Notes: generated by a model from the letters alone, not told the origin. Shown: positions 6,031 through 43,210, numbered from the stretch's first letter. The stretch is 64,000 nt of DNA from Dehalococcoidales bacterium (GCA_050018395.1 JBEKAC010000005.1:4794-68793), one strand, 5' to 3'. Numbers and translations are program-made.

Positions 6031-6141
6031 CAGATCTCCTTAAAAAGGTAATTACAGCCAATTATCAGGCACAGTTTTCAGGTTGTCAAGAAATTGACCG
6101 CAAAATAGCCGTCTGTTATTCTATGATGGAAGGTAGAGCAT

Positions 6142-12918: not shown

Positions 12919-12944
12919 TTATTACTCCTGTAACAATGTTGTTT

Positions 12945-12971
12945 TGTCATCCTGAGCGCAGCGAAGGATCT
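12945..12971. repeat. dispersed hairpin repeat, family B (inverted orientation)
   Basis: gtcatcctgagcgcagcgaaggatctc; lies between acsC and the acsB-like gene. Confidence 0.4.
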
Positions 12972-13022
12972 CGGTGTGGGGGAAGGGGTTAATACCTCTC
13001 CCCGGGATTCTTCAGTCGCTAT

Positions 13023-13047
13023 GGTTCGACAGGCTCACCGTGAACGC
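13023..13047. repeat. dispersed hairpin repeat, family B (diverged)
   Basis: ggttcgacaggctcaccgtgaacgc shares the ttcgacaggctca core. Confidence 0.4.
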
Positions 13048-13079
13048 TCCTTCAGAATGACAATAAATATTTTACCTTC

Positions 13080-13823
13080 TTATTCCAGTATCGGCTTCAT
13101 GGTCAAAGCGGGATGCCCTTTTTCCCGGAGAAAGGGGAGGACCGTCTCTTCAGTGATGCCTGCTGTTTCATCGGCGATTTTAGCCGGCAGGTCGGGCACG
13201 CCGAGTGCTCTAGCACACGCTGTAATGCGCTCCCCGATTTCCTCCTTGAGCTTCCGGGGCATCCAGACCAGGCGCAGGAGGCCGCCCTCGGCTTTGAGGA
13301 AATTTTCCTGCGTGATGGCACTCACGGCGTGGCCGATGAAACCCGGCGTCTGTTCCCCGCCGCGCACTATTTCCAGTAATTTTCCATAGGTGAAGCCGCC
13401 CGGTGTTTCCCCTTTATACCCCCGGTTAACCGTCATTACCCCGTTGCAGCCGGGTAGGACGGCGGTTACCGCCTCGCTAAGGATACAGGCCGTCGGCGGT
13501 GCGTGCATCAGGCTGTACAGGTTCACCTGTTTAATTCGGCCGTAAGAAATTTTTCGGAAATACTCGTTAACGTCCCGCCATTGTCCCCGCCCCGCATCCA
13601 GCGGTTCGCCTTTGGTAATCGGTGAAAAAGGCCCGTAAGGCTCTCTTTCGCTGACGGCTCTGGCCGTGTGCCAGTTATAGTTGCCGCAGATTCCCGTCTG
13701 CTCGGGCGTGATAATACAGGCATGGCAAGGCGCCAGGGACTGGCATATCGCGCAGGCGTAAAAGGTGTCTGTGCCGGCGTCGGTCAGGGCCGAGGATCGT
13801 TTTTGTTCTACTATCTTGTTCAT
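13080..13823 (-). CDS. stand-alone acetyl-CoA synthase (AcsB/CdhC) C-terminal A-cluster domain, with a degenerate Ni-binding motif
   Basis: 247 aa; CAIC-x8-C-x9-C reproduces the AcsB [4Fe-4S] ligand spacing; GNYNW, QWRDVNEY, NLYSLM, LPGCNG and VWMPRKLKEE match the AcsB C-terminus; CIL replaces the CGC motif. Confidence 0.75.
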   Translation of the reverse strand: MNKIVEQKRSSALTDAGTDTFYACAICQSLAPCHACIITPEQTGICGNYNWHTARAVSEREPYGPFSPITKGEPLDAGRGQWRDVNEYFRKISYGRIKQVNLYSLMHAPPTACILSEAVTAVLPGCNGVMTVNRGYKGETPGGFTYGKLLEIVRGGEQTPGFIGHAVSAITQENFLKAEGGLLRLVWMPRKLKEEIGERITACARALGVPDLPAKIADETAGITEETVLPFLREKGHPALTMKPILE

Positions 13824-15901: not shown

Positions 15902-17677
15902 TTAGCCTACATCGTGCAGTCCGTGGATCTTACCGGTCGTAACATCCACATCTACTTTCTTGAATGCCGGGTCGGAACTGGTGGCGGGCATCAGGCTGAT
16001 ATCCCCGGCCACCGGGCAGAGGAACCTGGCGCCGGAGTAGATAAGGACATCGCGGATGGGCAGCGTCCAGCCCTTGGGCACGCCTTTAAGGGTCGGGTCG
16101 TGGGTCAGGGAGAGGTGCGTCTTGACCATCATCGTGGCATAGTCGTTGTATTTCGGGTCGGCCTCGAAGGCCTTGGCTTTATCCGCCGCTGTTGCCGACC
16201 AGGAGACGCCATCGGCGCCATAGACGACCTTGGCAATCTGGTTCACGCGGTCGCGCAATTTCATCTCGTTGGGATAAAGGAATTTAAAATTTACCTTTTC
16301 GTTGCAGGCTTCCTTGACTGCATCGGTCAACTCCTGGGCGCCGGCGCCGCCTTTGGCATAGTGGAACGATATGGCGCAGCGGGCACCCGCTTTTTCGGCC
16401 GCCTTGCGGATAATTTCTTCTTCTTCCTTGGTGTCGGTCGGGAAGCTGTTAACGCAGACTACCGGGTTGATGCCGGAGGCGCGGATGATGTTGATGTGGT
16501 GGATCAGGTTTTCGCAGCCTTTCTCCACCAGGCCGGGCGCCGCTTTCTTATAGGCATCCGGCAGGGGCACACCGGGAGTGACCTTGGGGCCACCGCCGTG
16601 CATCTTAAGAGAGCGCACAGTGGCTACCAGCACCGAGACATTGGGTTTGAGGCCACTGTAGCGACACTTGACGTTCCAGAACTTCTCGAAGCCGATATCA
16701 GAGGCGAAGCCGCTCTCGGTGACATGATAATCAAACATTTTAAGCCCGACACGGTCGGCGATGATGGACGACTGGCCGATGGCGATATTGGCGAACGGGC
16801 CGGCATGGACAAAGCACGGCTGGTATTCCGCGGTCGAGCAGAGGGTGGGATTAATCGTGTTGCGCATCCAGGCCGTCATGGCGCCGGCTACCTGTAGGTC
16901 TTCGGTAGTGATAGGCTTGCCTTTTTTATCATAGGCGACGGTGATTTCACCGAGCCGTTTGCGCAGGTCGGCCAGGTCGGTGACGATGGAGAGGATGGCC
17001 ATCAGCTCGGAGCTGACGGCAATGCCGAACTTGCTCTGCATCATGTAGCCGTCAGTCTTCTGGGTGCCCATGCCGATGATGATGTTCCGCAAGGACTGGG
17101 CGCAGAAATCCATAATCCAGCCCATTTCCACCCGTAGCGGGTCGATGTCCAGGCGGCGCATGTGGCTAAGGCGGGCCAGTTGCTCGTCATCGTAGTTGCG
17201 TTCATGCTGCATCCTGGAGGTCACGGCGACCATCGCCAGGTTGTGGGCGTTCATAATATCGTTGATATCGCCTGTAAGACCCATGGAAAATTCTGTATGG
17301 GGGATAAGCAAAGCATTACCGCCGCCGGCCGCGGTGCCTTTAATGTTCATCGTCGGACCGCCGGAAGGCTGGCGGATAGCTCCGCCGACGCTTTCCTTCT
17401 GGTAGCCGAGGCCCTCGATCAGGCCCATGGTGGTGGTGGTCTTGCCCTCGCCCAGCGGGGTGGGGGTGACGGCCGTCACCTCGATGTACTTGCCGTCCGG
17501 TTTGTCCTTGAGCCGTTCCATGACTTTCAGGAAGTCAACTTTGCCGACTTTCCCGTAAGCCAGGATTTCGTCTTTTTTCAGGCCGAGTTTTTGCTGCCAT
17601 TCGGCGGGGGTGGGCATGTGTTCGCAGGCGGCTTCAGCTATCTGCCAGTCCGCCATCTTTGATGTGTCGTAAGCCAC
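15902..17677 (-). CDS. fhs: formate--tetrahydrofolate ligase
   Basis: 591 aa; [14 protein letters not shown]-loop and full-length FTHFS-like sequence. Confidence 0.95.
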
Positions 17678-20708: not shown

Positions 20709-20765
20709 TCCGGCTCAAGACCCCGATTGAATTCTCGTCCACATTCGATTATAATTTAAGAACAG

Positions 20766-20914
20766 TATCCGCTAGGGGTGCTCTGGCTGAGATGTCCCGA
20801 TATTATCGGGACGACCCTTGGAACCTGACCTCGGTAATACGAGCGTAGGGAAGCGGCGTAAACCAGAACCAGGGTTCGAGCGCTTCTAGCCGATATCCCT
20901 GGTTTTATTATTTT
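20766..20914 (+). promoter_or_regulatory. TPP (THI-box) riboswitch with a terminator-type expression platform
   Basis: ctaggggtgctctggctgagat...acccttggaacctgacctcggtaatacgagcgtagggaagcgg matches the THI-box consensus; then the aaccaggg/ccctggtt stem plus ttttattatttt, directly upstream of thiC. Confidence 0.9.
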
Positions 20915-30170: not shown

Positions 30171-30620
30171 ATGAATATTAAAACGGTAGCGAACAACCGC
30201 AAGGTTTTCCACAATTATTACGTGGGAGAGACGTTCGAGGCCGGCATCGCCCTGCTTGGTTCGGAAATAAAGTCTATCCGGGACGTGCGGGTGAGCCTTA
30301 GTGATGCTTACGTCAAACCGGAAAAGGGTGAGATGTGGCTGGTGAATGCGCATATCGCCCGGTACGCGGCGTCCAGCTATATGGGACATGATCCCACACG
30401 GCCGCGTAAGCTGCTGCTGCACCGGAAAGAAATTTTGAACCTCACCGGCAAGGTGGCGGAAAAGGGGTTGACGCTGGTAGCTACTAAAGTGTATCTCAAG
30501 GGAGGCCGGGCCAAAGTGGAAATAGCGCTGGCCAGGGGCAAAAAGCTCTATGATAAGCGTGAGGCCATCAGCCGCCGCGAGACGGACAGGGAGATGGAAC
30601 GGGCGATTAAAAGCCGCTAG
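30171..30620 (+). CDS. smpB: SsrA-binding protein
   Basis: 149 aa; NRKVFHNYYV...GSEIKSIR...LLLHRKEI...KLYDKRE pattern. Confidence 0.95.
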   Translation: MNIKTVANNRKVFHNYYVGETFEAGIALLGSEIKSIRDVRVSLSDAYVKPEKGEMWLVNAHIARYAASSYMGHDPTRPRKLLLHRKEILNLTGKVAEKGLTLVATKVYLKGGRAKVEIALARGKKLYDKREAISRRETDREMERAIKSR

Positions 30621-30639: not shown

Positions 30640-30989
30640 GGGGACGCGTGGTTTCGACAGGGGAAGTGCGCTATAGGAACGCAAGCAGAGGTGCCGCTCC
30701 CTCTTTAAACCGGTGGCAAAAAACAACTGCCGAACCAGTAATGGTTGCAGCCTAATTAACTAGGTTGCCATCCAACCTGACCTCACCCCGACGGGTCAGG
30801 ATTGGGTGCCGCAAAGTGGGGGTGCCGCTGCCCTGATGCCGGTATGGGCAGTGAAAGATTATCGGCTGGCCCGGCCCAACTCGGTCGGTTGAGGTGGGCG
30901 GGGCGAGACAAAAAGAGCCGACTAAGCTTGTAGTAAGTCCTGGACAGCTTCTTCTGGACGGGGAGTTCGACTCTCCCCCGTCTCCACCA
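30640..30989 (+). ncRNA. ssrA: tmRNA (ssrA), one-piece
   Basis: 5' ggggacgcgtggtttcgacagggg and 3' ggacggggagttcgactctcccccgtctccacca tRNA-like ends; candidate tag frame at 30729-30755 (GCC GAA CCA GTA ATG GTT GCA GCC TAA = AEPVMVAA). Confidence 0.9.
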
Positions 30990-31230: not shown

Positions 31231-31361
31231 TTATCCCAAATGGATATTTTGGTAAGCTTTCGGAGTGAATTTGGACCTCGCAGTGCTAAGAAAAGGAGCC
31301 TACGTGACAGGACACTGCCATCTTCTTTACTTACTTATTGGCGCGTAGCGTTTTCAGACCT

Positions 31362-31583
31362 ATGCATAAACGTATCAAAATAAAAGATGTTGCCGAGTAT
31401 TGTATGGTGAGCAGGACTACTGTACGCAGATGGATTGACGGCGGGAAATTGCAGGCGCTCAGGCTGCCCAGTGGTCATTATCGAATCAGACAAGTGGATT
31501 ACAGGCATTTTCTTGAGAACTGTGGGATTCCTCTTAAGGAAAGCGCCTTTGCGTCCAAATATGAAAGAAAGGAGAAAAACTAA
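31362..31583 (+). CDS. excisionase/MerR-type helix-turn-helix DNA-binding protein at the head of the gvp cluster
   Basis: [38 protein letters not shown] is the excisionase-family HTH pattern; stop is 2 nt before the gvpA ATG. Confidence 0.65.
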
Positions 31584-31585
31584 AA

Positions 31586-31792
31586 ATGGCAGTACAGACT
31601 TCGATGGCGTCATCGGGACTGGCTGAGGTCCTGGACCGGATACTGGACAAGGGCCTCGTACTCGATGCCTGGGTCAGGGTTTCCCTGCTTGGCCTGGAAA
31701 TCCTTACTATTGAAGCCAGGGTTGTCCTGGCTGGCGTCGAGACCTACCTGAAGTATGCTGAAGCTATTGGCCTTACGGCTACAGCCGCCTAA
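31586..31792 (+). CDS. gvpA: gas vesicle major structural protein
   Basis: 68 aa; [54 protein letters not shown] is canonical GvpA. Confidence 0.95.
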
Positions 31793-31880
31793 AAATTTGG
31801 GAGCGATTTTGCCAAGGTACCCTTGGCTAACGAAGTGCACCTTGCCAACGTCTCTCCCCTGGCTTAATGAGGATAAAAAT

Positions 31881-32552
31881 ATGGAACCAGTTTTAAACCT
31901 TATCACCTCTTATGAAAACAGAATTGCCACGGTGGAAGAATTGATGACAACGGCTTACCAGGCCACGATGACTTCCGATGGTAGCTTCGATGTTCTCGAT
32001 GGGGAGAGAGAAAGACTGAAAATCGGTCTGCAGAAAACATTGACAAAAAACTGCTCTTTACGCAGAAAGGACTTTACCCGGCTTATGGAAAGAGTACTTT
32101 CTGATTCAGATAAGAAAAAGATCGCCATCCAGGAAGAGCAAATTCGGGTTAGAGAAAAAGTCAGAGAATACCTGGATGAACAAAAACAGCTCTCGAAATA
32201 CCTGCGGCAGAAGTTAGTCGAATTAGCACAAGAAAAGGCGGATAAAAGTAGTCTCGACACAGTTATCACTAACATCAGGGACATGTATGAGAATAAGGGC
32301 CAGCAGCTCTTTGTAATATTTCGTGAATTCCAACAGCGTTTAAAAATCTTTCAGAGGGAGCAAGAGGAAATCAATTTCAAACTGCAGAGACTTGTGGATA
32401 GAGGCGAATCCTTGAGTCTGGAAGACCTGAGGCAGCTGGAAACAACTGAAGCTCTCCAGAAGAGAACGACAGAACGAGAGTTGCGGCGTGGAGAAGTGGA
32501 AAGGTTACTGTCTCATTTTAAGCAGCAACGGCAGGAAAGCCGCCGCCATTAG
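31881..32552 (+). CDS. coiled-coil hypothetical protein (gvp cluster, no known family)
   Basis: 223 aa from ATG 31881 (gagga RBS); charged heptad-rich sequence. Confidence 0.5.
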   Translation: MEPVLNLITSYENRIATVEELMTTAYQATMTSDGSFDVLDGERERLKIGLQKTLTKNCSLRRKDFTRLMERVLSDSDKKKIAIQEEQIRVREKVREYLDEQKQLSKYLRQKLVELAQEKADKSSLDTVITNIRDMYENKGQQLFVIFREFQQRLKIFQREQEEINFKLQRLVDRGESLSLEDLRQLETTEALQKRTTERELRRGEVERLLSHFKQQRQESRRH

Positions 32553-32588
32553 CGGTAAAAATATTACATTTTAGGCAGGAGGACAAAG

Positions 32589-33530
32589 ATGGGGATTGCT
32601 TACGAGATGAAAAAACTTACCCGTGACATTGCTTCTTCCCATAAAGATCGGACGAAAAATATCCATCAAATAGGAGAAGAGGTAAAACGGACCAGGGTTC
32701 ATGCCCGGAATCTGGTCCATGGCTTTAAGAGCTCTCGACAGGAGACCAGCCGGCAGCTGATAAGAGATTTAGCCCGGGATAAAACAGGTAGAACGTCTGA
32801 AGTCAAAGCTATTTTAAAGGATTCTCAAGTTTTCCTGAAAGACTTTAAAGACTCTCAGAAAATTACTAATGCCCGTTTGAGAAAAGATTTATCTGCGGGT
32901 ACGGCCAAAAGACTGTCTGAAGTGCAAATGACCTTGGAAGACGTCCACAAACTAATAAGAAGATTCCACTCATCTCTTCAGGAAGTGAGTTATCAATTAA
33001 AGAAAGACCTGGGTGAGAACCGGGCAGAAGTCAAGTCCGAGGTAGAAAAACTGATTGGGGATGCCCAAAATCTGGTAACAGATTTCCACACCGCCCGTAA
33101 ACAGGCGGGTGGACAACTGAGGGAAGGCATGGCTCAGGACAGAGCTCATTTGGGGTCAGAGGTAAAACAGATGAGAAGTGACTTCCGTGAAGCTTGTGGA
33201 AGTTTGAGAGCCGATCTTAAAGAAGTAAGAGATGCATGGCAGGGTTTAGCGGCCATGATACAAACCAGGATGGGCGTGACGGCACGTCCCCCGGCGGCAA
33301 TCCTCCCGGAGGCGAAGGCGCCTGCAGCCAAACAGGGAAACTCAGACCTGGAGACAAAGTTGCTGGCGACCGTCAACGGGTACCCTGCAGGAGGAATATC
33401 CCTGGCTGATTTATCCGGTATCCTCAGGGTAGCTCCTGTCGTATTGGGACGGGCTTCAAAGGGGCTCATTAATAAGCGAACAATCCGTAAAAAGGGAAAA
33501 CTCTACTTTCCGGTTTCCAGCGGAAACTAG
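32589..33530 (+). CDS. 40-aa tandem-repeat protein with a C-terminal winged-helix-like domain; candidate GvpC-type shell-binding protein
   Basis: 313 aa; four clear repeats plus one degenerate 40-residue repeat (aa 28-227); C-terminal LLATVNGYPAGGISLADLSGILRVAPVVLGRASKGLINKRTIRKKGKLYFP. Confidence 0.55.
   Translation: MGIAYEMKKLTRDIASSHKDRTKNIHQIGEEVKRTRVHARNLVHGFKSSRQETSRQLIRDLARDKTGRTSEVKAILKDSQVFLKDFKDSQKITNARLRKDLSAGTAKRLSEVQMTLEDVHKLIRRFHSSLQEVSYQLKKDLGENRAEVKSEVEKLIGDAQNLVTDFHTARKQAGGQLREGMAQDRAHLGSEVKQMRSDFREACGSLRADLKEVRDAWQGLAAMIQTRMGVTARPPAAILPEAKAPAAKQGNSDLETKLLATVNGYPAGGISLADLSGILRVAPVVLGRASKGLINKRTIRKKGKLYFPVSSGN
32670..33269 (+). repeat. 5 x 120-nt (40-aa) in-frame tandem repeats inside the 32589-33530 CDS
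   Basis: Units: IGEEVKRTRVHARNLVHGFKSSRQETSRQLIRDLARDKTG / RTSEVKAILKDSQVFLKDFKDSQKITNARLRKDLSAGTAK / RLSEVQMTLEDVHKLIRRFHSSLQEVSYQLKKDLGENRAE / VKSEVEKLIGDAQNLVTDFHTARKQAGGQLREGMAQDRAH / LGSEVKQMRSDFREACGSLRADLKEVRDAWQGLAAMIQTR. Confidence 0.7.
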
Positions 33531-33598
33531 GCGGCCCAGGGATTAAATAGCGGCCTCTGCGGCAGGCGAGGAGGCTATTAAAAACAGCGAGGGATATT

Positions 33599-34036
33599 AT
33601 GCCGAGCGAAGCTCTGAGAAACATCAGAACGATGCGTCAGATTAAGTCCAGTCTTGAACTGGTTAAAAACCGGAGAGTCAGGACCACTAACTCGCTGTCT
33701 AAAACGGACGGCGAAATATCGCACCTGAAATCTTTGACTGACGGGCAGGTGGAACAGGTTCTGGCCAAAGAGAGAAAACGCTTTGCGGCCCGCGAGGCAG
33801 CGGTTGATAAATCACGGCAGCGGTTGCTTAAGGCAAGGGATAAACTGGCGGCGACCATCAATAAGAACCGAGCACTGACCGAATTGAGACATCAGCTGCA
33901 GCAGGTGCCTATAGAAAGAAAGAGCCTCGTACCGGAAAAGGCGTTGGTGCCAGCTCAAAAACCGAAACCTCCGACTCGTAAGAAAATAGTGCGAACTCGA
34001 AAACCGAAACTACGCCAGGTAAAGCTTAAATATTAA
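33599..34036 (+). CDS. coiled-coil protein with a Lys/Arg/Pro-rich tail (gvp cluster, no known family)
   Basis: 145 aa; C-terminal KPKPPTRKKIVRTRKPKLRQVKLKY. Confidence 0.45.
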   Translation: MPSEALRNIRTMRQIKSSLELVKNRRVRTTNSLSKTDGEISHLKSLTDGQVEQVLAKERKRFAAREAAVDKSRQRLLKARDKLAATINKNRALTELRHQLQQVPIERKSLVPEKALVPAQKPKPPTRKKIVRTRKPKLRQVKLKY

Positions 34037-34112
34037 ACCGCAGTATATACTCGTTGATTATTGAACGAAACGTTGCAGGCGAGTGACGCCAGCTAATTAA
34101 GAAGGCAGATAG

Positions 34113-35054
34113 ATGACTACGATGCAGGGAGAACCCGCCACGGTGCTCAGCACTCAACCGAGCATTGATTTTGTGGAAACGCCCTATATCACGAATCTTA
34201 CCAACCGGGCGCTCGATTACATCAGAGCGGGTTTCCCCATCCATCTCAGTGGACCGGCGGGGGTCGGTAAAACGACTCTGGCCATGCACATCGCCGCCCG
34301 GCTGGAGCGTCCTGTAGTGCTGGTCTGCGGCGACCATGAATTCGGCAGCTCCGACCTGATTGGCGGGCTTTCCGGCTATCATAAGAAATTTTTAAGGGAT
34401 AACTATATCCACTCGGTGCTCAGGACTGACGAGAGTATGACCTCGCAATGGGTGGACAGCCGGCTCACCACTGCCTGTCAATACGGGCTCACTCTCATCT
34501 ACGACGAGTTTACCCGCTCACGGCCGGAAGCCAATAACGTGCTGCTTTCCGTATTGGAAGAAAAGCTCCTGCCACTGCCTACCACCCGGGGCGGCGAGAA
34601 TTATTTAAAAGTGCATCCCGATTTTACCGCTATCTTCACATCTAATCCCGAGGAATACGCCGGGGTTTTTAAAAGTCCGGACGCGCTACGCGATAGGATG
34701 GTGACCATCGAACTGGGCAACTTCGACGAAGAAACGGAAATCGCAATTACTCGGTCCAAGGCCAAACTTTCTGCGGAGCAGGCACAATTTGTCGTCAGCC
34801 TGGTGAGGAAGGTAAGGGAGGCTAAGTCTGATAACCGGCTTATCCCCACCGTCCGGGGCTGTATTATCATCGGCAAGATACTAAACCAAAAAGGCGGGGC
34901 CACTAATAACGGCTTTAAACAAATTTGTCTTGATGTTTTAATGCCCGAAGTTTCCATAAAAGACAGGGAAAAGGTCAGTCAGGTAATAGATGAAGCTCTG
35001 CCTGGCTCTCCCCGGATGGAGGTAAATTATGCCCAAAAAAGAAAAAAACGGTAA
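34113..35054 (+). CDS. gvpN: gas vesicle AAA+ ATPase
   Basis: 313 aa; LSGPAGVGKTTLAMHIA Walker A, LIYDEFTRS Walker B; MoxR/GvpN-like. Confidence 0.85.
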   Translation: MTTMQGEPATVLSTQPSIDFVETPYITNLTNRALDYIRAGFPIHLSGPAGVGKTTLAMHIAARLERPVVLVCGDHEFGSSDLIGGLSGYHKKFLRDNYIHSVLRTDESMTSQWVDSRLTTACQYGLTLIYDEFTRSRPEANNVLLSVLEEKLLPLPTTRGGENYLKVHPDFTAIFTSNPEEYAGVFKSPDALRDRMVTIELGNFDEETEIAITRSKAKLSAEQAQFVVSLVRKVREAKSDNRLIPTVRGCIIIGKILNQKGGATNNGFKQICLDVLMPEVSIKDREKVSQVIDEALPGSPRMEVNYAQKRKKR

Positions 35055-35544
35055 GGTTGATGTTGATTTCGGCATGGGCCAGATAAGCCTGGGGGGATTG
35101 TTCAAGGGGCTGGGCAATTTCATGGACCTTGCCTCCAAATTAAGCGAAGAAGGGTATGAGAAAAAGGGTGAGATCAGCGGCTTGCCTAAAGGGGCTAAAG
35201 GGGTTTATGGCTTTAGTATCAGGACGCTGGCAGGTAAGCCGGTAATCGAGAGCTTTGGGAACATTAAGGAAACGGCCAGGGGGCCGGTGGTGGAAGAGGT
35301 CCGGGAACCGATGGTTGATATTTTTAATGAAAAAGACCGCATCCTAGTTATTGCCGAGTTACCCGGCATAGCGGAGAGCGAAATTAAAATCGAGGTAAAC
35401 GGGGATATCCTTAATCTGTCGGCGGCCGGTAGAGACCGGAAATACGCCAGGGAAGTCCTCCTCCCCGCCAGGGTTAAACCGGACTCACTAAAGAGTTCCT
35501 ATAAGAATGGGATTTTAGAAATCACCCTGGAAAAAGAAAAATAG
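35029..35544 (+). CDS. Hsp20/alpha-crystallin-domain protein (GvpH-like), paralog 1
   Basis: 171 aa; [27 protein letters not shown]...[14 protein letters not shown]; overlaps the gvpN end by 26 nt. Confidence 0.8.
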
Positions 35545-35561
35545 CCGGAGGAGATATTTTC

Positions 35562-37700
35562 GTGAGTGTTGCTATTGCGGTCGTGACTCTGCGCGTGGCT
35601 GAAGCAAAACCCCGGGACGTGGGGCGGGGTATCGCCCGGATTGACCCCCGGGACCTGGAAAAACTGGGCGCCGAGGTGGGCGATATTATTCAGGTGGAAG
35701 GCAAACGGAAGACGGCCGCCAAGGTCATGCCGGCCTATGCGGAAGACCGGGGAAAGTCGCTCATCCAGATAGACGGGCTTTTGCGGGGTAATGCCCAGGT
35801 CTCTCTGGATGAAAAGGTCACGGTGCAAAAGGCCAGCTTTTTACCGGCTGAAAAGATAGTACTCAACCCGCTGACTCTGGTGAGGTCCATCAGCCAGGAG
35901 AGAGACGCTAAGTATATCGGCACTTTATTGGACGGGCTGCCGCTGGTAGAGGGGGACACTATCAGGGCCAACCTCTTCGGCACCCGGAGCCAGGATTTTA
36001 CCGTGATCAGCTCTATCCCCAGGGGCCTGGTGCTGGTGCATGCCCGGACCAAAATAGAGGTTAAAGAGAAGACTGAACCTAGGGTTAAAGACTCCAAAAT
36101 ATCCTACGAAGATATCGGCGGTCTGGGAAAAGAATTGCACCGGATAAGAGAGATGGTTGAGCTGCCTCTCAAGTATCCTCAGATATTTGAACGTCTAGGA
36201 ATAGACCCTCCCAAGGGAGTGCTCCTTCATGGCCCTCCCGGGTGCGGCAAAACGCTGATTGCCCGCGCCGTGGCCAATGAAACAGCGGCTTATTTTACCC
36301 ATATCACCGGCCCGGAGATAATGGGCAAGTTTTACGGGGAGAGTGAAGGGCGGCTCCGGGCTGTCTTTGAAGAAGCCAAAAACAACGCCCCCGCCATTCT
36401 TTTCATTGATGAAATCGACGCCATTGCCCCCAAAAGGGAAGAGATGGGCGGCGAGAAGCAGGTGGAAAGAAGGGTGGTGGCCCAGCTGCTGGCCCTCATG
36501 GACGGACTGGAATCAAGGGGCGAGGTAATTGTCATCGGGGCCACCAATATCCCCAACTCTCTCGACCCGGCGCTGCGGCGGCCCGGCCGGTTCGACCGCG
36601 AGATCGCCATCAGCATCCCCGACCATAAAGGGCGCCTGGATATCCTCCAGATTCACACCCGGGGCATGCCCCTGGCGCAGGATGTCGACCTGGAAAGGCT
36701 TTCCCAGATTACTCATGGCTTTGTCGGGGCCGACCTGGAAGCCTTAAGCCGCGAGGCGGCGATGAATGCCCTCAGAAAAATAATGCCCAACATCGATTTT
36801 CAGCTGGACGAGATTCCGTATGAAACTCTCTTGAAACTGGAAGTAACGATGAATGACTTCACCGAGGCGCTTAAAGAGGTGGAACCCTCGGCGATTCGTG
36901 AGGTCTTTGTCGAGGTCCCCAACGTAAGATGGGAGGATGTCGGCGGCCTGGACGAAATGAAACAAAAATTAGTTGAGGCCGTGGAATGGCCGCTACGCTA
37001 TCCTCACCTGTTCCAGGAGGCCAACGTCAATCCTCCTAAAGGTATTCTCCTTTCCGGCTCACCGGGGACGGGAAAGACCCTGGTCGCCAAAGCGCTGGCC
37101 CATGAAAGCGAGGTAAATTTCATCTCGATAAAAGGCCCCGAGCTGATATCAAAATATATCGGCGAATCGGAAAGGGGCGTGAGAGAGATATTCCGGAAAG
37201 CCAAGCAGGCCAGCCCCTGCATTATCTTCTTCGATGAGTTTGATTCACTGGTGCCGGAACGCGGGACCAGCGATAATTCACAGGTTACCGAGAGAGTTAT
37301 CAGCCAGTTCCTCACCGAGCTCGATGGGCTGGAAGAGCTTAAAGGTGTACTGGTCCTGGCGGCTACCAACAGAAAGGACCTCATCGATTCCGCCATCGTG
37401 AGGACGGGCCGGTTTGATTTCACCCTGGAGTTCTCCTTACCTGATGAAAAGGCCCGTCGGGAAATATTTGGCATTCATGCCAGGGGCAAACCCCTCGCTC
37501 CTGACATCAATCTGGAAGTCATGGCCCAGAAAACAGAAGGTCTGGCGGGTTCGGATATCGAGGTCATCTGCCGCGAAGCCGCCATGATAGCTATCAGGAC
37601 GTTTATCAAAAATGAAGACAAGAAAGGCAAACTCAAAATTACCAGGCAGCATTTTGAAATGGCCATTGATTGGTTAAAAGCACAGAAAGGGGAAGAATAA
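35562..37700 (+). CDS. CDC48/VCP/VAT-type double-ring AAA+ ATPase
   Basis: 712 aa, GTG start. N-domain is [37 protein letters not shown]. Two AAA modules: [25 protein letters not shown] and [25 protein letters not shown]. Confidence 0.9.
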
Positions 37701-38456
37701 GTGTCCGGGCAAAGAAAATATATTTATGGAATTGTTCGGGAACACCAATTCAGGAGATTCGGCTTCACGGGGGTGGGAGAAGCTGATGTCTATACCATCA
37801 ACTGGCAAAAAATAGCTGCCATCGTCAGTGATACCGAGTTTTCGGAGATAGACCCGACCCGCAAGAACGTGCAGGCTCATACCATTGTCCAGGATGAGCT
37901 GTTGAAAGAGTACACCCTGCTCCCCATGAGCTTCGGCATGATTGCTGCCGGCGAAGATGAAGTTACAGGACTGCTGGAGAAGAATTACCAGGGTCTTACC
38001 GGCGAACTGGACCGCCTCGCCGATATGATAGAAGTTGAGCTGAAGCTCTACTGGGAACCGGAGACCATCATTAAAGAGCTGCAAGGTGAGAACCAGGAAC
38101 TATCCAAGATTAAGGCTAAAATAAATACGGCATCGTCGCTCGGGGAAAAACGGAATCTGTTAATCGAAGCCGGCAAACTGGTAGATGACATCGTTCTGGA
38201 CTGGAAGACCAGGTATGCCGGTATGGTTTACAGCGTTCTCTCAGAGCTATCTTCTCAGGCTAAAATGAATAATCCGGTGGGATTAAAGAACCTCCTTAAT
38301 GCCTCGTTCTTGATAGATAAGTCCGGTGAAAGTGAATTTAAAGAACAGGTCTACAAATTGGATGCAAACTTCCTGGGAAAAGTCAATTTTAAATATGTCG
38401 GGCCGATGCCTGCTTATAACTTCATTAATTTAAAGCTGGAGCCGGTAAAGTGTTAA
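37701..38456 (+). CDS. gvpF: GvpF/GvpL-family gas vesicle protein
   Basis: 251 aa; YIYGIV......VYTINWQKIAAIVSD...HTIVQDELLKEYTLLPMSFG pattern; GTG abuts the CDC48 stop. Confidence 0.85.
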   Translation: MSGQRKYIYGIVREHQFRRFGFTGVGEADVYTINWQKIAAIVSDTEFSEIDPTRKNVQAHTIVQDELLKEYTLLPMSFGMIAAGEDEVTGLLEKNYQGLTGELDRLADMIEVELKLYWEPETIIKELQGENQELSKIKAKINTASSLGEKRNLLIEAGKLVDDIVLDWKTRYAGMVYSVLSELSSQAKMNNPVGLKNLLNASFLIDKSGESEFKEQVYKLDANFLGKVNFKYVGPMPAYNFINLKLEPVKC

Positions 38457-38704
38457 CCGGATTACTATTTTCTGTCCTCGGTGTCCCCGTCACTCTTGCC
38501 AAGGAGATAATGGGCAAGCTTAGAGACGAGATTGACAAAGAACGCCTGATTACTGAAGAGTCGATTAAACAGAGACTCCAGCAGCTGCAACTACTGCTGC
38601 GGGACGGCGAGTTGAATGAAGAGGAATACGAAGGCATAGAGGAACAGCTTATAGCCAGGTTGAAGGCAGTAAGGGAATACCAAAAGAGCCAGGAGGTTAA
38701 ATAA
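38450..38704 (+). CDS. gvpG: gas vesicle protein G
   Basis: 84 aa; hydrophobic N-terminus then EEEYEGIEEQLIARLKAV, typical of GvpG; overlaps gvpF by 7 nt. Confidence 0.75.
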   Translation: MLTGLLFSVLGVPVTLAKEIMGKLRDEIDKERLITEESIKQRLQQLQLLLRDGELNEEEYEGIEEQLIARLKAVREYQKSQEVK

Positions 38705-39079
38705 ATGCCATTACAGGCGACGAAGGACGGGGGTAACACACTTGCGGACGTCATCGACCGCGTACTGGACAAGGGACTGATTATCAATGCCGATATCTGT
38801 GTTTCCATAGCCGGCGTTGAACTCCTGGGAATCAAGATACGGGCCGCCCTGGCATCTTTTGAGACAGCTGCCAAATATGGTCTGGAGTTCCCCAGTGGCA
38901 CCAACTATGAAAAAGCCGCCTGGAGGGAAACAGATGTCAGCAGGGAGATATGTCCGCAGTGCAGTAAAAAAGTCGTTACTGAAGAGCTTCTCAATGAGGG
39001 GTGTCCCTGGTGCGGGTGGATCAGCGCTAAGGCTAAAAAAGTTGAAGACAGAATAACACCCAAAATCGTGGCAGAGTAA
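38705..39079 (+). CDS. GvpA/J/M-family protein with a C-terminal CxxC...CxxC zinc ribbon
   Basis: 124 aa; LADVIDRVLDKGLIINADICVSIAGVELLGIKIRAALASFETAAKYG core, then CPQCSKK...GCPWCG. Confidence 0.8.
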   Translation: MPLQATKDGGNTLADVIDRVLDKGLIINADICVSIAGVELLGIKIRAALASFETAAKYGLEFPSGTNYEKAAWRETDVSREICPQCSKKVVTEELLNEGCPWCGWISAKAKKVEDRITPKIVAE

Positions 39080-39097
39080 AAAGGCGGGAACGTTAAA

Positions 39098-39613
39098 ATG
39101 AGCGCCGTGACGGTTAAAACTAAAAAAGGGCTGGACCAGCTCCTTCAGGTTCTGGATGAAAAGAGCCGGGCTATGTTGTGGCATCTGTGGTGGCACCGGC
39201 ATGCCGGTATCTCGGAATTAAGAGAGCTCATTGACGCTGCCAATGATTTTGAAGTTCTTTACCGGTTGAGAGAGGTCATCAACGAACAATCACTGAAGCT
39301 CTGGGGGAGACCGATAGTGAGCTTCGAACAGTCAAGGCTGGACTCCTCAAATGGGGCTATGGTTTTGTTTAGCTGGTGGTTTCTGGATGAAGAGAATGTT
39401 CCCATATCGGGTGGGAACAAACCGCTGGTAGACATATTCTATGAGAAAGACAGCATTTCCATCATCACTCAGGTGCCGACCTCGGTTGACCAGTCGCAAC
39501 GTGAAATATTGTATAAAAACGGTATCTTGAAGGTCCGGCTGGGAAAAAGGAAGAATAGTGGGACAGACAAAGGGAAAAAGCGGGAGGGGAGATTACACCC
39601 GGAACCCGCGTGA
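39098..39613 (+). CDS. hypothetical protein with a shortened Hsp20-like C-terminus (paralog 2)
   Basis: 171 aa; LVDIFYEKDSISIITQVP...ILYKNGILKVRLGK resembles the ends of an alpha-crystallin domain, with the middle missing. Confidence 0.5.
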   Translation: MSAVTVKTKKGLDQLLQVLDEKSRAMLWHLWWHRHAGISELRELIDAANDFEVLYRLREVINEQSLKLWGRPIVSFEQSRLDSSNGAMVLFSWWFLDEENVPISGGNKPLVDIFYEKDSISIITQVPTSVDQSQREILYKNGILKVRLGKRKNSGTDKGKKREGRLHPEPA

Positions 39614-40124
39614 AAAACAGTCGGAAGGCCCGGTGGAAGGCGTCCTTCGCGGTCTGGATGAGGTTATTCCCGGCTTCGGCGAGGTGGTAAAGGGGCTGGA
39701 AAAATCGGAAGCCTTTCAAAAAAGACTGGAAACCGCCAATGCCGAGGTGGAGCGCCGCCTGGGAAAAGCCCCTCTATCAAGCGGGGCGGTTAGCTCGAGA
39801 AGAGCTCCCTTTCAGGCCGGAAGAGCTTTGAAAATAAACCGGTCCGCGCCCGGTAAAGAATCACCGGTGCCATCATCGCCACGGGATGTGAATGCAGATA
39901 TATTTGACGAAGGTGACAACCTCGTAATCATCGCCGAGTTGCCCGGTGTAGATGAAAAGGACATCAAGATCGCGGTCAAAGAGAACCGGCTTAAGCTCTT
40001 TGCCCGGAGCCAGAGCCGCCAGTATAACAGGGAAATAGTCTTGCCTTGTAGCGTCAAAGAAAAACCGGGTTTGACTTATAAAAACGGGATTTTGAAAATC
40101 AGCCTGGAAAAGGAACCGAAATAG
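39558..40124 (+). CDS. Hsp20/alpha-crystallin-domain protein (GvpH-like), paralog 3
   Basis: DIFDEGDNLVIIAELPGVDEKDIKIAV...LTYKNGILKISLEK; the true start may be GTG 39633 (ggaagg RBS) rather than GTG 39558. Confidence 0.7.
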   Translation: MGQTKGKSGRGDYTRNPREKQSEGPVEGVLRGLDEVIPGFGEVVKGLEKSEAFQKRLETANAEVERRLGKAPLSSGAVSSRRAPFQAGRALKINRSAPGKESPVPSSPRDVNADIFDEGDNLVIIAELPGVDEKDIKIAVKENRLKLFARSQSRQYNREIVLPCSVKEKPGLTYKNGILKISLEKEPK

Positions 40125-40130
40125 GAGCCT

Positions 40131-40457
40131 ATGGCTATTAATATCGATGAGAATAACCTGAAACAAGGCGTACTGGGGCTGGTCATAGCCCTGGTGGAGG
40201 TAATCAAAGACACCCTGAAAATCCAGGCATTTAAAAGGATGGAGGGCGGAAGCTTAAGCGAGGAAGAATGCGAGCGGCTGGGAAAAGCTTTGATGGACCT
40301 GGATAACGCCCTGGAAGAAATCAAGACCGAACAGGGCATCATCGAATCGGTTCAGTCCGTGAGAGATGGGCTGGATGAGATTGTGGATGGCGTTATCGAT
40401 AGGATAGTAAATCCGGAAAAATGGCGGGATGAAGCCAAAAAAAGCCTGCCGGTTTAA
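40131..40457 (+). CDS. gvpK: gas vesicle protein K
   Basis: 108 aa; LKQGVLGLVIALVEVIKDTLKIQAFKRMEGGSLSEEECERLGKALMDLD is GvpK-like. Confidence 0.85.
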   Translation: MAINIDENNLKQGVLGLVIALVEVIKDTLKIQAFKRMEGGSLSEEECERLGKALMDLDNALEEIKTEQGIIESVQSVRDGLDEIVDGVIDRIVNPEKWRDEAKKSLPV

Positions 40458-40489
40458 TCGGGGAAAAGAACCTCTTGGGAGGCATATAA

Positions 40490-41656
40490 ATGGAAGAGAT
40501 ATTCTACGCTGTACTGGCACTGCGCACCGCCGGTAAGCCGGTCAATAAAGCGACAATACAGGCCGTGCTAAACCAGGCCGGCAAACAGGTTGACGAGACA
40601 GCCCTTGATGCTATGGCCGCCTTTGTTGAATCTTTAGCGAATGCCAGCGAGGGAAAAGAAGGAGCCATGGACCCCAGAATTATTAAGTTTCTGACCAGCG
40701 AACTAACGGGACATAAAGTGGAAACAACGCAGCTGGAGGCGCTTCTTGCCAAACTCAGCACGGCCGCTGCATCAGTTCCGGAGACTCTGAACGGTCACCT
40801 TGATACAGCACCGGAGGCGCAGGCCGGAGCCGCGGATGTGGAGTCTGAATCCCGCATTCACAGTAAAGGACGGTATGTCTATGGCGTGGCGATGGGGGAT
40901 AAGGAGGTCCGGCTGGGGCCGATAGGTATAGGGGGCAGCGAGGTTTACACTATCCCTTATAAAGACATCAGAGCGATCGTTCACAATTGCTCTACTGAGC
41001 CGTATCAGTCTACAGATGGCGCAACGGTAAAGGACTGGGTGAATATCCACGAAGGCGTTCTCGAAGCGGCCGGTGAACGACTTGGTATCGTTGTCCCCCT
41101 GGGCTTCGATACAATATTACAGTCAAAAGATGGCAGCACTTCCCCGGAAAATGTGGTAAACGACTGGCTCAAGGAGGATTATGACCGCCTTCGGGAGGTG
41201 ATGAGAAAGATAGAGGGTAAAGCTGAGTATGGAGTTCAGGTTTCCTATAAACTAAGTTTAGTCATTGAGCAGATATCGGAAAAGAGCGAAGAAATTAGAA
41301 GAATCAAGGAAGAGATAGCCACCAAATCCCCGGGTGTGGCTTATATGTATAAACAAAAGCTGGAAAGAGCCGTTAAGGCAGAGACCGAGCAGCTGGCCAA
41401 TGCCTGGTTCACCGATTTCTACACCAGGATTAAACCGCACACCGAGGATATCATCGTCGAGAAGACTAAAAAGCTGAATGATGGCAAAACAATGCTGCTT
41501 AACCTCTCCTGCCTGGTAGCCAGGGATAAAGTCGATAGCCTGGGTAAGGAATTGGAGGCTATCAATAATATGAACGGCTTCTCCGTTCACTTTTCCGGGC
41601 CCTGGCCGCCCTACAGCTTTGTGGCCAAACCCGTTGTTTTAGTTAAAGGAGAATAA
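40490..41656 (+). CDS. gvpL: GvpF/GvpL-family protein with an N-terminal archaeal ribosomal stalk P1/L12-like domain
   Basis: 388 aa; the N-terminal MEEIFYAVLALRTAGKPVNKATIQAVLNQAGKQVDETALDAMAAFVESL resembles archaeal L12/P1; from about aa 125 GRYVYGVA...VYTIPYKDIRAIVHN... is GvpF/L-like. Confidence 0.8.
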   Translation: MEEIFYAVLALRTAGKPVNKATIQAVLNQAGKQVDETALDAMAAFVESLANASEGKEGAMDPRIIKFLTSELTGHKVETTQLEALLAKLSTAAASVPETLNGHLDTAPEAQAGAADVESESRIHSKGRYVYGVAMGDKEVRLGPIGIGGSEVYTIPYKDIRAIVHNCSTEPYQSTDGATVKDWVNIHEGVLEAAGERLGIVVPLGFDTILQSKDGSTSPENVVNDWLKEDYDRLREVMRKIEGKAEYGVQVSYKLSLVIEQISEKSEEIRRIKEEIATKSPGVAYMYKQKLERAVKAETEQLANAWFTDFYTRIKPHTEDIIVEKTKKLNDGKTMLLNLSCLVARDKVDSLGKELEAINNMNGFSVHFSGPWPPYSFVAKPVVLVKGE

Positions 41657-41657
41657 A

Positions 41658-42014
41658 ATGCAGCCTACCCGGGACACTCATGCCACACTGGTAGACCTAC
41701 TCGATAGGGTACTGGAAAAGGGGCTGGTCCTTAATGCTGACCTGCTTATTAATGTCGCCGGCATTCCCCTCCTGGGGGTTAATTTGAGGGCCTGCCTGGC
41801 CGGGGTAGAGACCATGCTGAAATACGGCGTCTGGCAGGACTGGGATGCAGCCCAAAGGTCAATCGCCAACAAGGAGCGACAGCCTAAAAGGGCCAAAGAA
41901 CCAATAAGTGTTTCAGAATTGATACCGGAGCAAAATACTCCGTCTTCTCTATACAGGAAAACAGCCGCGGAATTTATAATAAATGAGGAGGCGAAAATCC
42001 AAGATGAACGCTAA
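41658..42014 (+). CDS. GvpA/J/M-family gas vesicle protein
   Basis: 118 aa; LVDLLDRVLEKGLVLNADLLINVAGIPLLGVNLRACLAGVETMLKYG. Confidence 0.8.
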   Translation: MQPTRDTHATLVDLLDRVLEKGLVLNADLLINVAGIPLLGVNLRACLAGVETMLKYGVWQDWDAAQRSIANKERQPKRAKEPISVSELIPEQNTPSSLYRKTAAEFIINEEAKIQDER

Positions 42015-42258
42015 TCAGGTAGTAGAAAAAGCGCGTAAAGAGTTTATCGGACTGGGTAAGAAGCCGACCGATGGGATTACCGGCCTTGCCAAGACGAAGG
42101 AAGGGTGGTCCATCCAGATAGAGTCACTGGAAAGGAAGGCCATTCCTGATACCATGGATGTGCTGGGTTTGTATGAACTCCGCATGGATGACGAAGGCCA
42201 TCTTCTCGGCCTTGACAGGAAGAAGCTGCGCAAGCGCGGCGAAACACATGAAGAGTGA
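42004..42258 (+). CDS. gvpO: gas vesicle protein O
   Basis: 84 aa from ATG 42004; GITGLAKTKEGWSIQIESLERKAIPDTMDVLGLYELRMDDEGHLLGLDRKKLRKRG fits the GvpO pattern. Confidence 0.75.
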   Translation: MNANQVVEKARKEFIGLGKKPTDGITGLAKTKEGWSIQIESLERKAIPDTMDVLGLYELRMDDEGHLLGLDRKKLRKRGETHEE

Positions 42259-42272
42259 AAGGAAAGTGCCAG

Positions 42273-42473
42273 ATGACAGAATGGAACAAGTGCCCGGGAT
42301 GCGGAAGCACTATCAGCGGTGACTCTGATTTCTGCCCGAATTGCGGAGAACCGTGGACCATCAAGTGTCCGGGTTGTGGCATGATACAGCGTTTCTGGAA
42401 AATGCATAAATTTTGTCACAATTGTGGCACGCGGATGGAATTGCATGGCGTCGTTAAGAGCCACCGGAAGTAG
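42273..42473 (+). CDS. double zinc-ribbon protein
   Basis: 66 aa; CPGCG...CPNCG...CPGCG...CHNCG; gaaaggaaag RBS; start could be GTG 42255. Confidence 0.55.
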   Translation: MTEWNKCPGCGSTISGDSDFCPNCGEPWTIKCPGCGMIQRFWKMHKFCHNCGTRMELHGVVKSHRK

Positions 42474-42520
42474 CTTGGTTTTGTGACGGATCTCATGCCC
42501 GAATATGCACCGGATAAGTG

Positions 42521-43210
42521 ATGAAAAAACTGTTTATTATTCCTATCATCCATATGAGTGCCGATATGGGTTCGGTGGCTTTAGCTCTGGATGAAGCGGC
42601 AGGTGCCAGGCTGACGCCGGAACTGTGGCAGAAGCACAAAGAAATCGTATCCGTTTTCTGGGATTCCATCGGACGATTTTTCGATTCTCTACAAGTCAGC
42701 GGTTTTAAAGTCTATCAGGATGGGGTCTTCGTTGACGGCGAAGAAGGAAATAGAATCATCAGGGAGGGCATCAAGCAGGGGAGTAAAAATTACGAGATTG
42801 TGGGCAGGCTTCTGGATAGAGGCGCCGTCCTGGTAAAAACCGAGTCTCTCCCCCTGGTAAAACAAGAATACAGCTATATCACCAAAATGACCCGCTCTAA
42901 ATCGTTAAAAGAAAAGGAAGTCGCTGCTCTCAGGTACAAACTGGCCCGGGGTAAACTGTTAAAGCAAAGGGATGAATTCATCGCCGGAAGAATCAATGAG
43001 ACCCTGGCTAAAGGTGAAACCGGTATCCTTTTCATCGGGGCATATCACGATGTTATCCGCAAACTGGCTTCTGAAATAAAAGTATCTCAGGTTAAAGAGG
43101 TTGCCCGGGTTAAGGACTACTATAATCAACTAATAAAAGCCAGGCGGTATGACAAATACCTCCAAAATCTCGGGGAGTATCTCACCTCGCCCGTTTCCGG
43201 CGTGTCATAA
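42521..43210 (+). CDS. hypothetical protein, last gene of the gvp cluster; weak TraB/Tiki-like GxxH pattern
   Basis: 229 aa; LFIIPIIHMS near the N-terminus and ILFIGAYHDV near the C-terminus. Confidence 0.45.
   Translation: MKKLFIIPIIHMSADMGSVALALDEAAGARLTPELWQKHKEIVSVFWDSIGRFFDSLQVSGFKVYQDGVFVDGEEGNRIIREGIKQGSKNYEIVGRLLDRGAVLVKTESLPLVKQEYSYITKMTRSKSLKEKEVAALRYKLARGKLLKQRDEFIAGRINETLAKGETGILFIGAYHDVIRKLASEIKVSQVKEVARVKDYYNQLIKARRYDKYLQNLGEYLTSPVSGVS

Follow-up and report, generated by a model that had tools for sequence, protein, structure and literature searches.

A CDC48/VAT-type ATPase gene paired with a small heat-shock protein gene in gas-vesicle gene clusters of Dehalococcoidales and other bacteria

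In a 64,000-nucleotide stretch of DNA from a Dehalococcoidales bacterium (GCA_050018395.1 JBEKAC010000005.1:4794-68793; the whole stretch is called the window below), the genes for a small heat-shock protein (sHSP, here Hsp20a) and a 712-amino acid (aa) CDC48/VAT-type AAA+ ATPase lie between gvpN and gvpF of a gas-vesicle gene (gvp) cluster, and the same linkage is found around related CDC48 genes of bacteria carrying about 15 phylum labels. The two proteins most likely constitute a proteostasis module of the gvp cluster, one that travels with it, and, judged from the comparative sequence evidence given below, there is a high probability that the pair is functionally dedicated to gas vesicles. 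The gas-vesicle proteins GvpA, GvpJ, and GvpM aggregate unless they are chaperoned, the suspected chaperones being GvpF, GvpG, and GvpH, and GvpN is the only ATPase in current gas-vesicle models (PMC9501494; PMC11445434; PMC6107691). The CDC48 machine and the gvp cluster are both known, and their conserved combination seems to be undescribed; we found no open-access paper linking CDC48 to gvp clusters, and an earlier mention elsewhere is possible. The central part of the cluster is arranged as follows (window coordinates), the gvp assignments resting on Pfam and NCBIfam scores that exceed the curated cut-offs.

34113-35054, + strand: gvpN, AAA+ ATPase of the MoxR/AAA_5 type (TIGR02640 GvpN, 327 bits versus cut-off 267)
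35029-35544, + strand: Hsp20a, small heat-shock protein, 171 aa (Pfam HSP20; NF041800)
35562-37700, + strand: CDC48/VAT-type double-ring AAA+ ATPase, 712 aa, GTG start (Pfam, TIGR01243)
35562-36086, + strand: CDC48 N domain
36087-36926, + strand: CDC48 D1 domain
36231-36254, + strand: D1 Walker A, GPPGCGKT
36327-36344, + strand: D1 pore loop 1, KFYGES
36402-36419, + strand: D1 Walker B, FIDEID
36927-37697, + strand: CDC48 D2 domain
37056-37079, + strand: D2 Walker A, GSPGTGKT
37152-37169, + strand: D2 pore loop 1, KYIGES
37227-37244, + strand: D2 Walker B, FFDEFD
37698-37700, + strand: CDC48 stop codon
37701-38456, + strand: gvpF (Pfam GvpL_GvpF, 196 bits)

By every sequence criterion tested, the 712-aa protein is a CDC48/VAT-family member. 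It matched the Pfam models CDC48_N (residues 9-92, 101.9 bits, cut-off 35.1) and CDC48_2 (residues 115-170, 33.6 bits, cut-off 22.4), together with two AAA and two AAA_lid_3 domains, and among the NCBIfam models it scored 961.6 bits with TIGR01243 ("CDC48 family AAA ATPase", cut-off 802.65), while the PAN models matched single AAA modules only. Among solved structures, Thermoplasma VAT (5g4f, 735 bits) is the best match, ahead of plant and animal Cdc48/p97; automated annotations already name homologues "CDC48 family AAA ATPase". An earlier reading of the window from sequence alone (the initial annotation) had assigned this protein the full CDC48 architecture with intact Walker A and B motifs, and Pfam, TIGR01243, and our motif check agree with that assignment. 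Its proviso that an FtsH- or ClpX-type protein might have been misread can be set aside: neither fits, because the scores fall below the curated cut-offs (FtsH, 503 bits versus 600, with no peptidase among the Pfam matches; ClpX, about 40 bits versus about 359, with no ClpX zinc domain among the Pfam matches).

When all 83 family members were aligned, the Walker A and B motifs, sensor-1, arginine fingers, and aromatic pore loops were intact in both rings of every one (83/83). The D1 segment RRPGRFDRE is invariant, D1 pore loop 1 conforms to K[FYW]YG[EQ]S in 82 members, and the listed D2 pore-loop variants (e.g., K[YWF][VIL]GES) all retain the aromatic residue. Mean identity to the window protein is highest in D1 (82%), followed by D2 (66%) and the N domain (58%). 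The KFYGES of the window protein aligns with KYYGQS of VAT and with KLAGES of plant Cdc48A, i.e., the D1 pore loop is VAT-like and not p97-like; D1 pore-loop residues decide whether the enzyme engages and unfolds substrates unaided (literature summarised in PMC6017811). The sequence prerequisites of a hexameric ATP-driven unfoldase are present, and such activity is predicted. An HbYX (hydrophobic-Tyr-X) C-terminus was not found: the window protein ends in ...KAQKGEE and the 82 relatives end variably and lack a penultimate-Tyr pattern. Because this motif is missing, the 20S proteasome docking shown for archaeal Cdc48 is unlikely here, and a proteasome-coupled unfoldase was rejected since no HbYX-like C-terminus is conserved.

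Hsp20a is a small heat-shock protein by domain content and curated score, with a predicted holdase role. Its alpha-crystallin domain spans approximately aa 86-170 (Pfam HSP20, 40.2 bits, cut-off 20.8, E = 4e-10), its score of 148.1 bits with NF041800 "archaeal heat shock protein Hsp20" exceeds the cut-off of 140, and in PDB it is closest to 4rzk, a crystallin domain of the Hsp20 family (E = 1.8e-17). The Hsp20a ATG lies 26 nt inside the gvpN 3' end with a GGAGGT Shine-Dalgarno sequence 7 nt upstream, GGAGGAG is found 9 nt upstream of the CDC48 GTG, and the CDC48 stop codon (TAA) abuts the gvpF GTG at 37701. The initial annotation had placed an Hsp20 gene overlapping gvpN, followed by CDC48, inside a translationally coupled gvp operon; the open reading frames (ORFs) and the overlap bear out this layout, and translational coupling is plausible because overlapping or abutting junctions are accompanied by ribosome-binding sites. 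One homologue was called at 706 aa, which leaves an uncertainty of about six codons in the position of the CDC48 start.

The linkage of CDC48 to gvp genes is conserved well beyond the window. More than 100 protein clusters are 81-91% identical to the window CDC48 and, where named, come from Chloroflexota or Dehalococcoidales. On two long contigs (CDC48 identity 88% and 82%) the order HTH (helix-turn-helix protein gene), gvpA, three unknowns, gvpN, Hsp20, CDC48, gvpF, gvpG is the same, and the two contigs differ in the genes flanking the cluster. A scan of one genome per species yielded 389 CDC48 relatives, the best 80 of which (64-92% identity) were analysed further; all 80 are bacterial. Their labels (approximately 15 at the phylum level) include Dehalococcoidia, Acetothermia, Atribacterota, Clostridia, Aerophobetes, Latescibacterota, Brocadiaceae/Scalindua, other Planctomycetes, Nitrospirota, Sumerlaeota, Cloacimonetes, Desulfobacteraceae, Syntrophales, Desulfatiglandales, Syntrophorhabdus, Actinomycetota, Aminicenantes, Omnitrophota, and one Patescibacteria bin, and the cultured Desulfoluna spongiiphila AA1 (NZ_FMUX01000003, locus L077) is among these genomes. 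The statement in the initial annotation that bacterial homologues are reported mainly from Actinobacteria is thus outdated for the window clade, which, on these sequence data, is abundant among anaerobes. When a Desulfobacteraceae CDC48 was used as the seed of a homologue search, no named protein of Desulfobacterium vacuolatum was returned; the gvp cluster of D. vacuolatum DSM 3385 (FWXY01000008:1268-24724) has been expressed experimentally and makes vesicles in E. coli (Hurt et al., PMC10344784).

When the window's Gvp proteins were searched by tblastn against 82 CDC48 loci, core gvp genes were detected in 79 of them (77 of the 80 species-level genomes), and every core gvp match was on the CDC48 strand; gene orders are rearranged among these loci, yet CDC48 is always co-directional. 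A gene resembling that of Hsp20a lies within 2 kb of CDC48 in 66 of the 82 loci, and in 34 the distance is no more than 150 bp. The three loci with no gvp match are uninformative and not contrary, because they have too little flanking sequence: in L027 the CDC48 gene starts 428 bp from the contig end, the contig of L080 is only 3.8 kb, and L031, where an Hsp20-like gene and a gene for a 230-aa protein (unk230, described below) adjoin CDC48, ends 1.5 kb downstream of CDC48. The percentage identities of CDC48 and of other cluster proteins to their window counterparts are correlated over the loci (rho 0.74 for GvpF, 0.67 for Hsp20, 0.63 for GvpK, 0.62 for unk230, and 0.55 for GvpN), and this correlated divergence is consistent with joint descent or joint transfer. 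One bin, CSMAG_1143, has two separate gvp loci (L024 and L046), each with its own Hsp20 and CDC48 genes, the CDC48s being 71% and 67% identical to the window protein.

Two further samples served as controls. The first, a metagenome scan seeded with a GvpN alignment and biased toward GvpN proteins like the window's, gave 80 loci, of which 22 have at least 6 kb downstream of gvpN; a CDC48 of the window clade (62-92% identity) was found in 18 of these 22. The second came from an exhaustive search of representatives, in which the next-best proteins outside the clade are 44-56% identical to the window protein, compared with an identity of at least 64% within the clade. The nearest out-of-clade sources are Dadabacteria/Thermodesulfobacteriota, Halobacteria, Thermoplasmatota, and one Asgard archaeon, and none of the six out-of-clade CDC48 genes inspected (three bacterial, three archaeal) has gvp or Hsp20 neighbours. 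A neighbor-joining (NJ) tree was built from the 80 gvp-linked sequences together with 92 representatives; in it, the gvp-linked set and a single representative, P0167, make up one clade (bootstrap 74/100). P0167 (L084, 10001-12139) is the sole member of this clade that was found apart from gvp genes; it lies beside two transposase genes and its D2 AAA matches are lost, for which reasons it looks decaying, probably a relocated copy.

These results bear on the remaining proposals of the initial annotation. The neighbourhood is conserved in the CDC48-centred and the GvpN-seeded samples and absent (0/6) outside the clade; the NJ tree places the protein in a gvp-linked clade, the nearest outsiders of which come from Dadabacteria and Archaea; and the suggested dedicated role in gas-vesicle biology is supported by this conserved, clade-specific linkage. 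The same data make it very improbable that a general heat-shock sHSP/CDC48 pair was inserted into the cluster by chance and serves general stress tolerance only. Such a pair has a precedent, since an sHSP gene is paired with an AAA+ ATPase gene in euryarchaeal heat-shock regulons (PMC10653856), and Hsp20a does score as an archaeal Hsp20. A chance insertion is hard to reconcile, however, with a linkage kept over so many phylum labels through rearranged yet co-directional gene orders and correlated divergence, with the presence of CDC48 in each of the two gvp loci of bin CSMAG_1143, with the decay of the one copy away from gvp genes, and with the lack of gvp linkage among out-of-clade CDC48s.

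Comparison with known systems further defines the pair, which we continue to read as a module of the gvp cluster. Like the window protein, VAT and archaeal Cdc48 have a double-psi-barrel N domain plus beta-clam followed by D1 and D2; VAT shares the aromatic pore loops in both rings, and the nearest relatives outside the window clade are largely archaeal (53-56% identity). In contrast to archaeal Cdc48/VAT, the window protein is bacterial, lies inside a gas-vesicle operon, and falls in its own clade, and, unlike proteasome-coupled archaeal Cdc48, the clade has no conserved HbYX-type C-terminus. The likeness to the euryarchaeal heat-shock pair is that an sHSP is co-expressed with a CDC48-like AAA+ ATPase (under Phr in Pyrococcus and under HSR1 in Archaeoglobus; PMC10653856); the window pair differs in being wired into an organelle-biogenesis operon instead of a stress regulon, and no Phr or HSR1 homologue was seen. 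Import of a ready-made archaeal Hsp20-CDC48 pair was considered and rejected, as none of the three nearest archaeal homologues inspected is next to an Hsp20 gene, leaving a functional analogy only. Cpa of Actinobacteria is likewise a bacterial CDC48-family double-ring ATPase without the HbYX motif, but it forms a separate actinobacterial cluster, its operon contains psd and pssA where the window protein has gvp neighbours (PMC6017811), and it binds the proteasome, to which no link is evident for the window CDC48. Membership in the Cpa group was rejected on the basis of the gvp neighbours and the nearest outside relatives (Dadabacteria, Archaea), not by direct alignment. Non-actinobacterial bacterial Cdc48 homologues have been described as sporadic, grouping with archaeal ones, probably acquired from Archaea, and of unknown role (Ziemski et al., PMC6017811); the window clade, by its sequence relationships, fits among these "sporadic" bacterial CDC48s.

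How the pair might act is a separate matter, on which we lean, by a small margin of belief, toward a holdase/unfoldase mechanism that frees aggregated or faulty shell proteins for reassembly. The sHSP would bind non-native, aggregation-prone shell proteins of the GvpA/J/M family, and a CDC48 hexamer would grip these clients via the aromatic pore loops of both rings and, by ATP-driven threading, extract them from off-pathway aggregates or mis-assembled shell. The unfolded, assembly-competent clients would then pass to GvpF/G/L, with GvpN assisting in their insertion, and CDC48 would act alone rather than docked on a proteasome. The substrate, the direction (assembly quality control versus dismantling), and the cooperation with Hsp20 are parts of this scheme that we infer. 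The functional logic would be that of sHsp/Hsp100 disaggregation, in which the holdase keeps clients extractable by a ring-shaped AAA+ threading motor of a different family (ClpB/Hsp104). An Hsp70 partner is not encoded in the window cluster; in the sister cluster L044, GvpF is fused to a DnaJ J-domain. The wealth of chaperone-related genes in sister clusters (see below) speaks for such a module, as do the euryarchaeal sHSP/AAA+ precedent and the published emphasis on aggregation of GvpA, GvpJ, and GvpM.

The domain, motif, and pore-loop evidence would serve equally well for an enzyme of dismantling and recycling, in which a CDC48 segregase pulls GvpA from collapsed or surplus vesicles and Hsp20 holds the hydrophobic subunits. 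Collapsed vesicles are not re-inflatable, and their clearance would free cell volume and recover protein. Pulling subunits out of highly stable assemblies is what CDC48/p97 is classically known for. In the gas-vesicle literature examined no disassembly factor is described, and PMC11445434 contains neither "disassembl" nor "recycl". The CDC48 gene sits, however, in the middle of a biogenesis operon, plausibly coupled in translation to gvpN and gvpF, so that the protein would be made during vesicle building, and no sequence feature separates dismantling from assembly quality control; we regard dismantling as unlikely, though it is the foremost of the alternatives.

Other ATPases of gvp clusters bear on whether CDC48 could instead be a second shell-growth motor, delivering or inserting GvpA into the growing rib alongside GvpN. 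GvpN is the AAA+ ATPase of gvp clusters needed for vesicle enlargement (PMC9501494; PMC11445434); unlike CDC48, it is a single-module protein without the CDC48 N domain or classical aromatic pore loops, and the two are not substitutes because both are present in the same clusters. That CDC48 always occurs with GvpN and never replaces it, from a gene located between gvpN and gvpF, would suit a second motor. ArsA homologues and Hsp20 are found in gvp clusters of several phyla and were proposed to energise or chaperone biogenesis, with no mention of a CDC48-type ATPase (Castillo and Saier 2010, PMC2963123). ArsA, a dimeric P-loop ATPase, belongs to another class and, unlike CDC48, is not a ring translocase. 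In about 19 of the loci analysed, Hsp20 and CDC48 are separated by a gene for a single-domain ArsA/Get3-type ATPase; the window's own cluster has no ArsA gene. The sister cluster L044 (Latescibacter anaerobius) carries it together with further chaperone-like parts (coordinates of L044):

9045-9980: ArsA/Get3-type ATPase between Hsp20 and CDC48 (Pfam ArsA_ATPase, 277 bits)
12683-13708: GvpF fused to a DnaJ J-domain
5742-6065 and 8098-8478: two small DnaJ-type CXXCXGXG zinc-finger proteins
16951-17598: GvpJ-GvpK fusion

The ArsA/Get3-type ATPase of sister clusters, as a targeting factor for hydrophobic proteins (PMC2963123), would fit a delivery function as well. On the other hand, processive two-ring threading unfolds substrates rather than placing folded ones, and gvp clusters without CDC48 exist; CDC48 as a growth motor is in our view improbable.

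Several observations weigh against the quality-control module that we favour, or limit its generality. Four GvpN-seeded loci lack CDC48 (L111, L114, L122, and L132) and carry an ArsA-type ATPase with or without Hsp20; the GvpN of these clusters is 54-56% identical to the window's, and L114 is flanked by 10 kb on each side. CDC48 is therefore common but not obligatory in this gvp branch, and the CDC48-free clusters suggest interchangeable or modular chaperone sets. To our knowledge, the studied clusters of Halobacterium, Anabaena, Bacillus megaterium, and Serratia also have no CDC48, and since gvp clusters without it exist, it is not universally required. All of the support is comparative, and help in assembly cannot be told from turnover by co-transcription with the structural genes. 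Support in the tree, a simple distance-based one, is moderate, the taxon labels of metagenome bins may be wrong, and common descent with the archaeal pair is unproven because the three nearest archaeal CDC48s have no Hsp20 neighbour.

A possible partner of CDC48, the 230-aa protein unk230, is encoded by the last gene of the window cluster. The unk230 gene is found in 52 of the 82 CDC48 loci and, in other phyla, is often next to CDC48: it directly adjoins CDC48 in nine loci, and in three from Atribacterota/Aerophobetes (L019, L021, and L022) it is flanked by Hsp20 and CDC48; homologues were also noted at L018, L027, L031, L039, L045, L054, L070, and L073. Every one of its 671 homologues is annotated "hypothetical". 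The invariant residues include H12, D16, H40, Q67-D68-G69, E109, E117, R151-D152, and H177, and a confident AF2 model is alpha/beta with a pLDDT of 85. Foldseek gave no significant match of this model in PDB (best E = 0.2; HopBA1, TM 0.25), and a profile search of PDB found nothing. Its His-containing end motifs had raised the idea of a TIKI/TraB/ChaN-like hydrolase, with which CDC48 would have formed an unfoldase-protease pair; this was rejected, as no profile or fold similarity was detected. By its gene position and conservation, unk230 may be a CDC48 partner.

It is in this connection that a regulatory unfoldase has to be weighed, i.e., a CDC48 that sets vesicle number by unfolding a regulator or a Gvp protein in surplus, which a host protease or unk230 would then degrade. 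Haloarchaea offer a loose precedent in GvpD, an NTP-binding repressor in whose presence GvpE is degraded (PMC9501494), and unk230 both adjoins CDC48 often and has invariant His, Asp, and Glu residues. Against this, Pfam detects no protease domain in the window's gvp cluster, the HbYX motif is missing, and unk230 shows no detectable hydrolase similarity by profile or fold. We consider a regulatory unfoldase to have little likelihood, and the release of shell proteins for reassembly remains the reading that we prefer.

The Hsp20/CDC48 pair belongs to a same-strand block of 19 genes (31338-43210) in which all intergenic gaps are 85 bp or less according to the ORF listing, and the pair is surrounded by genuine gvpA, N, F, G, J, K, L, J/M, and O genes. 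The remaining genes of the block are listed below.

31338-31583, + strand: HTH_17/MerR-like small DNA-binding protein (Pfam HTH_17, E = 4e-11)
31586-31792, + strand: gvpA, major shell protein (Pfam Gas_vesicle, 54.3 bits)
31878-32552, 32589-33530, and 33599-34036, + strand: three coiled-coil ORFs (weak coiled-coil-type Pfam matches only)
38450-38704, + strand: gvpG (Pfam)
38705-39079, + strand: gvpJ-like gene, product with a C-terminal Cys-rich tail (CPQC...CPWCGW) (Pfam)
39098-39613, + strand: Hsp20b, degenerate Hsp20-like protein (partial NF041800 match; weak BLASTP match to Hsp20c)
39558-40124, + strand: Hsp20c, second full crystallin-domain protein, in a GvpH-like position (Pfam HSP20, ArsA_HSP20; weak GvpH match)
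40131-40457, + strand: gvpK
40490-41656, + strand: gvpL with an N-terminal extension
41658-42014, + strand: gvpJ/M
41983-42258, + strand: gvpO
42255-42473, + strand: double-zinc-ribbon protein, 72 aa (Pfam DZR)
42518-43210, + strand: unk230, 230-aa protein of unknown fold (no Pfam/NCBIfam match)

The cluster contains three Hsp20-related genes, two of which (Hsp20b and Hsp20c) are additional to that of the initial annotation. Over the crystallin domain, Hsp20c shares 48% identity with Hsp20a, Hsp20b retains only edge strands of this domain, and their ORFs overlap by 56 nt as listed. A repeated C-terminal "YKNGIL" coding segment (family D1) is common to Hsp20a, Hsp20b, and Hsp20c. The HTH_17/MerR-like protein is a candidate regulator of the cluster; its gene is directly upstream of gvpA also in the relatives L001 and L002. 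The three consecutive coiled-coil ORFs occupy the usual place of gvpC, have no family assignment, and are kept in Dehalococcoidia relatives and more weakly elsewhere. Zinc-ribbon genes recur across many related gvp clusters. Promoter and terminator scans gave counts equal to chance expectation.

The N-terminal extension of GvpL is about 125 aa (40490-40870) and is absent from the L001 homologue (272 aa). Its first approximately 50 residues match the dimerisation domain of archaeal ribosomal stalk P1 (PDB 3a1y, E = 3e-4), an odd domain for a bacterial protein to have. The gvp cluster is directly preceded by smpB (30171-30620) and a tmRNA gene (30640-30989, tag AEPVMVAA); G+C falls from approximately 0.55-0.60 to approximately 0.48-0.53 across the cluster, and the close relatives L001 and L002 hold the cluster in other genomic contexts. 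Insertion of an island at the tmRNA gene is only suggested, and was not adopted: the att-like direct repeat and the integrase searched for near the tmRNA gene and gvp cluster were not found. A TPP riboswitch (Rfam RF00059, 70.3 bits; 20764-20868, + strand) is unrelated to the gvp finding.

In a wider and more tentative view, which we think may well prove wrong, gvp clusters of anaerobes would be self-contained, horizontally mobile organelle cassettes with their own archaeal-type proteostasis, CDC48 being an organelle-specific factor. If this is true, the cassette would consist of the sHSP and CDC48, variably joined by a Get3/ArsA-type ATPase, the J-domain-GvpF fusion, and unk230, and would provide a bacterial CDC48 with a defined physiological substrate. 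CDC48 would then be required for productive shell assembly in hosts without suitable chaperones, or would be the first enzyme known to dismantle gas vesicles. How the hydrophobic, amyloid-like GvpA stays soluble, is inserted, and is later removed is an open question in the field (PMC11445434; PMC9501494), for which a cluster-encoded VAT-type unfoldase with an sHSP offers a concrete, testable component. The "sporadic" bacterial CDC48s, so far without a known role (PMC6017811), gain a likely physiological context. Approximately five of 15 heterologous gvp clusters tested in E. coli made vesicles (PMC10344784), and gas-vesicle expression is reported to cause proteotoxic stress (PMC12848028); a portable chaperone module could improve acoustic-reporter constructs. 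The module also illustrates how an organelle gene cluster may carry its own proteostasis genes between phyla, and the conserved pairing points to a built-in, unstudied chaperone system of a gas-filled organelle.

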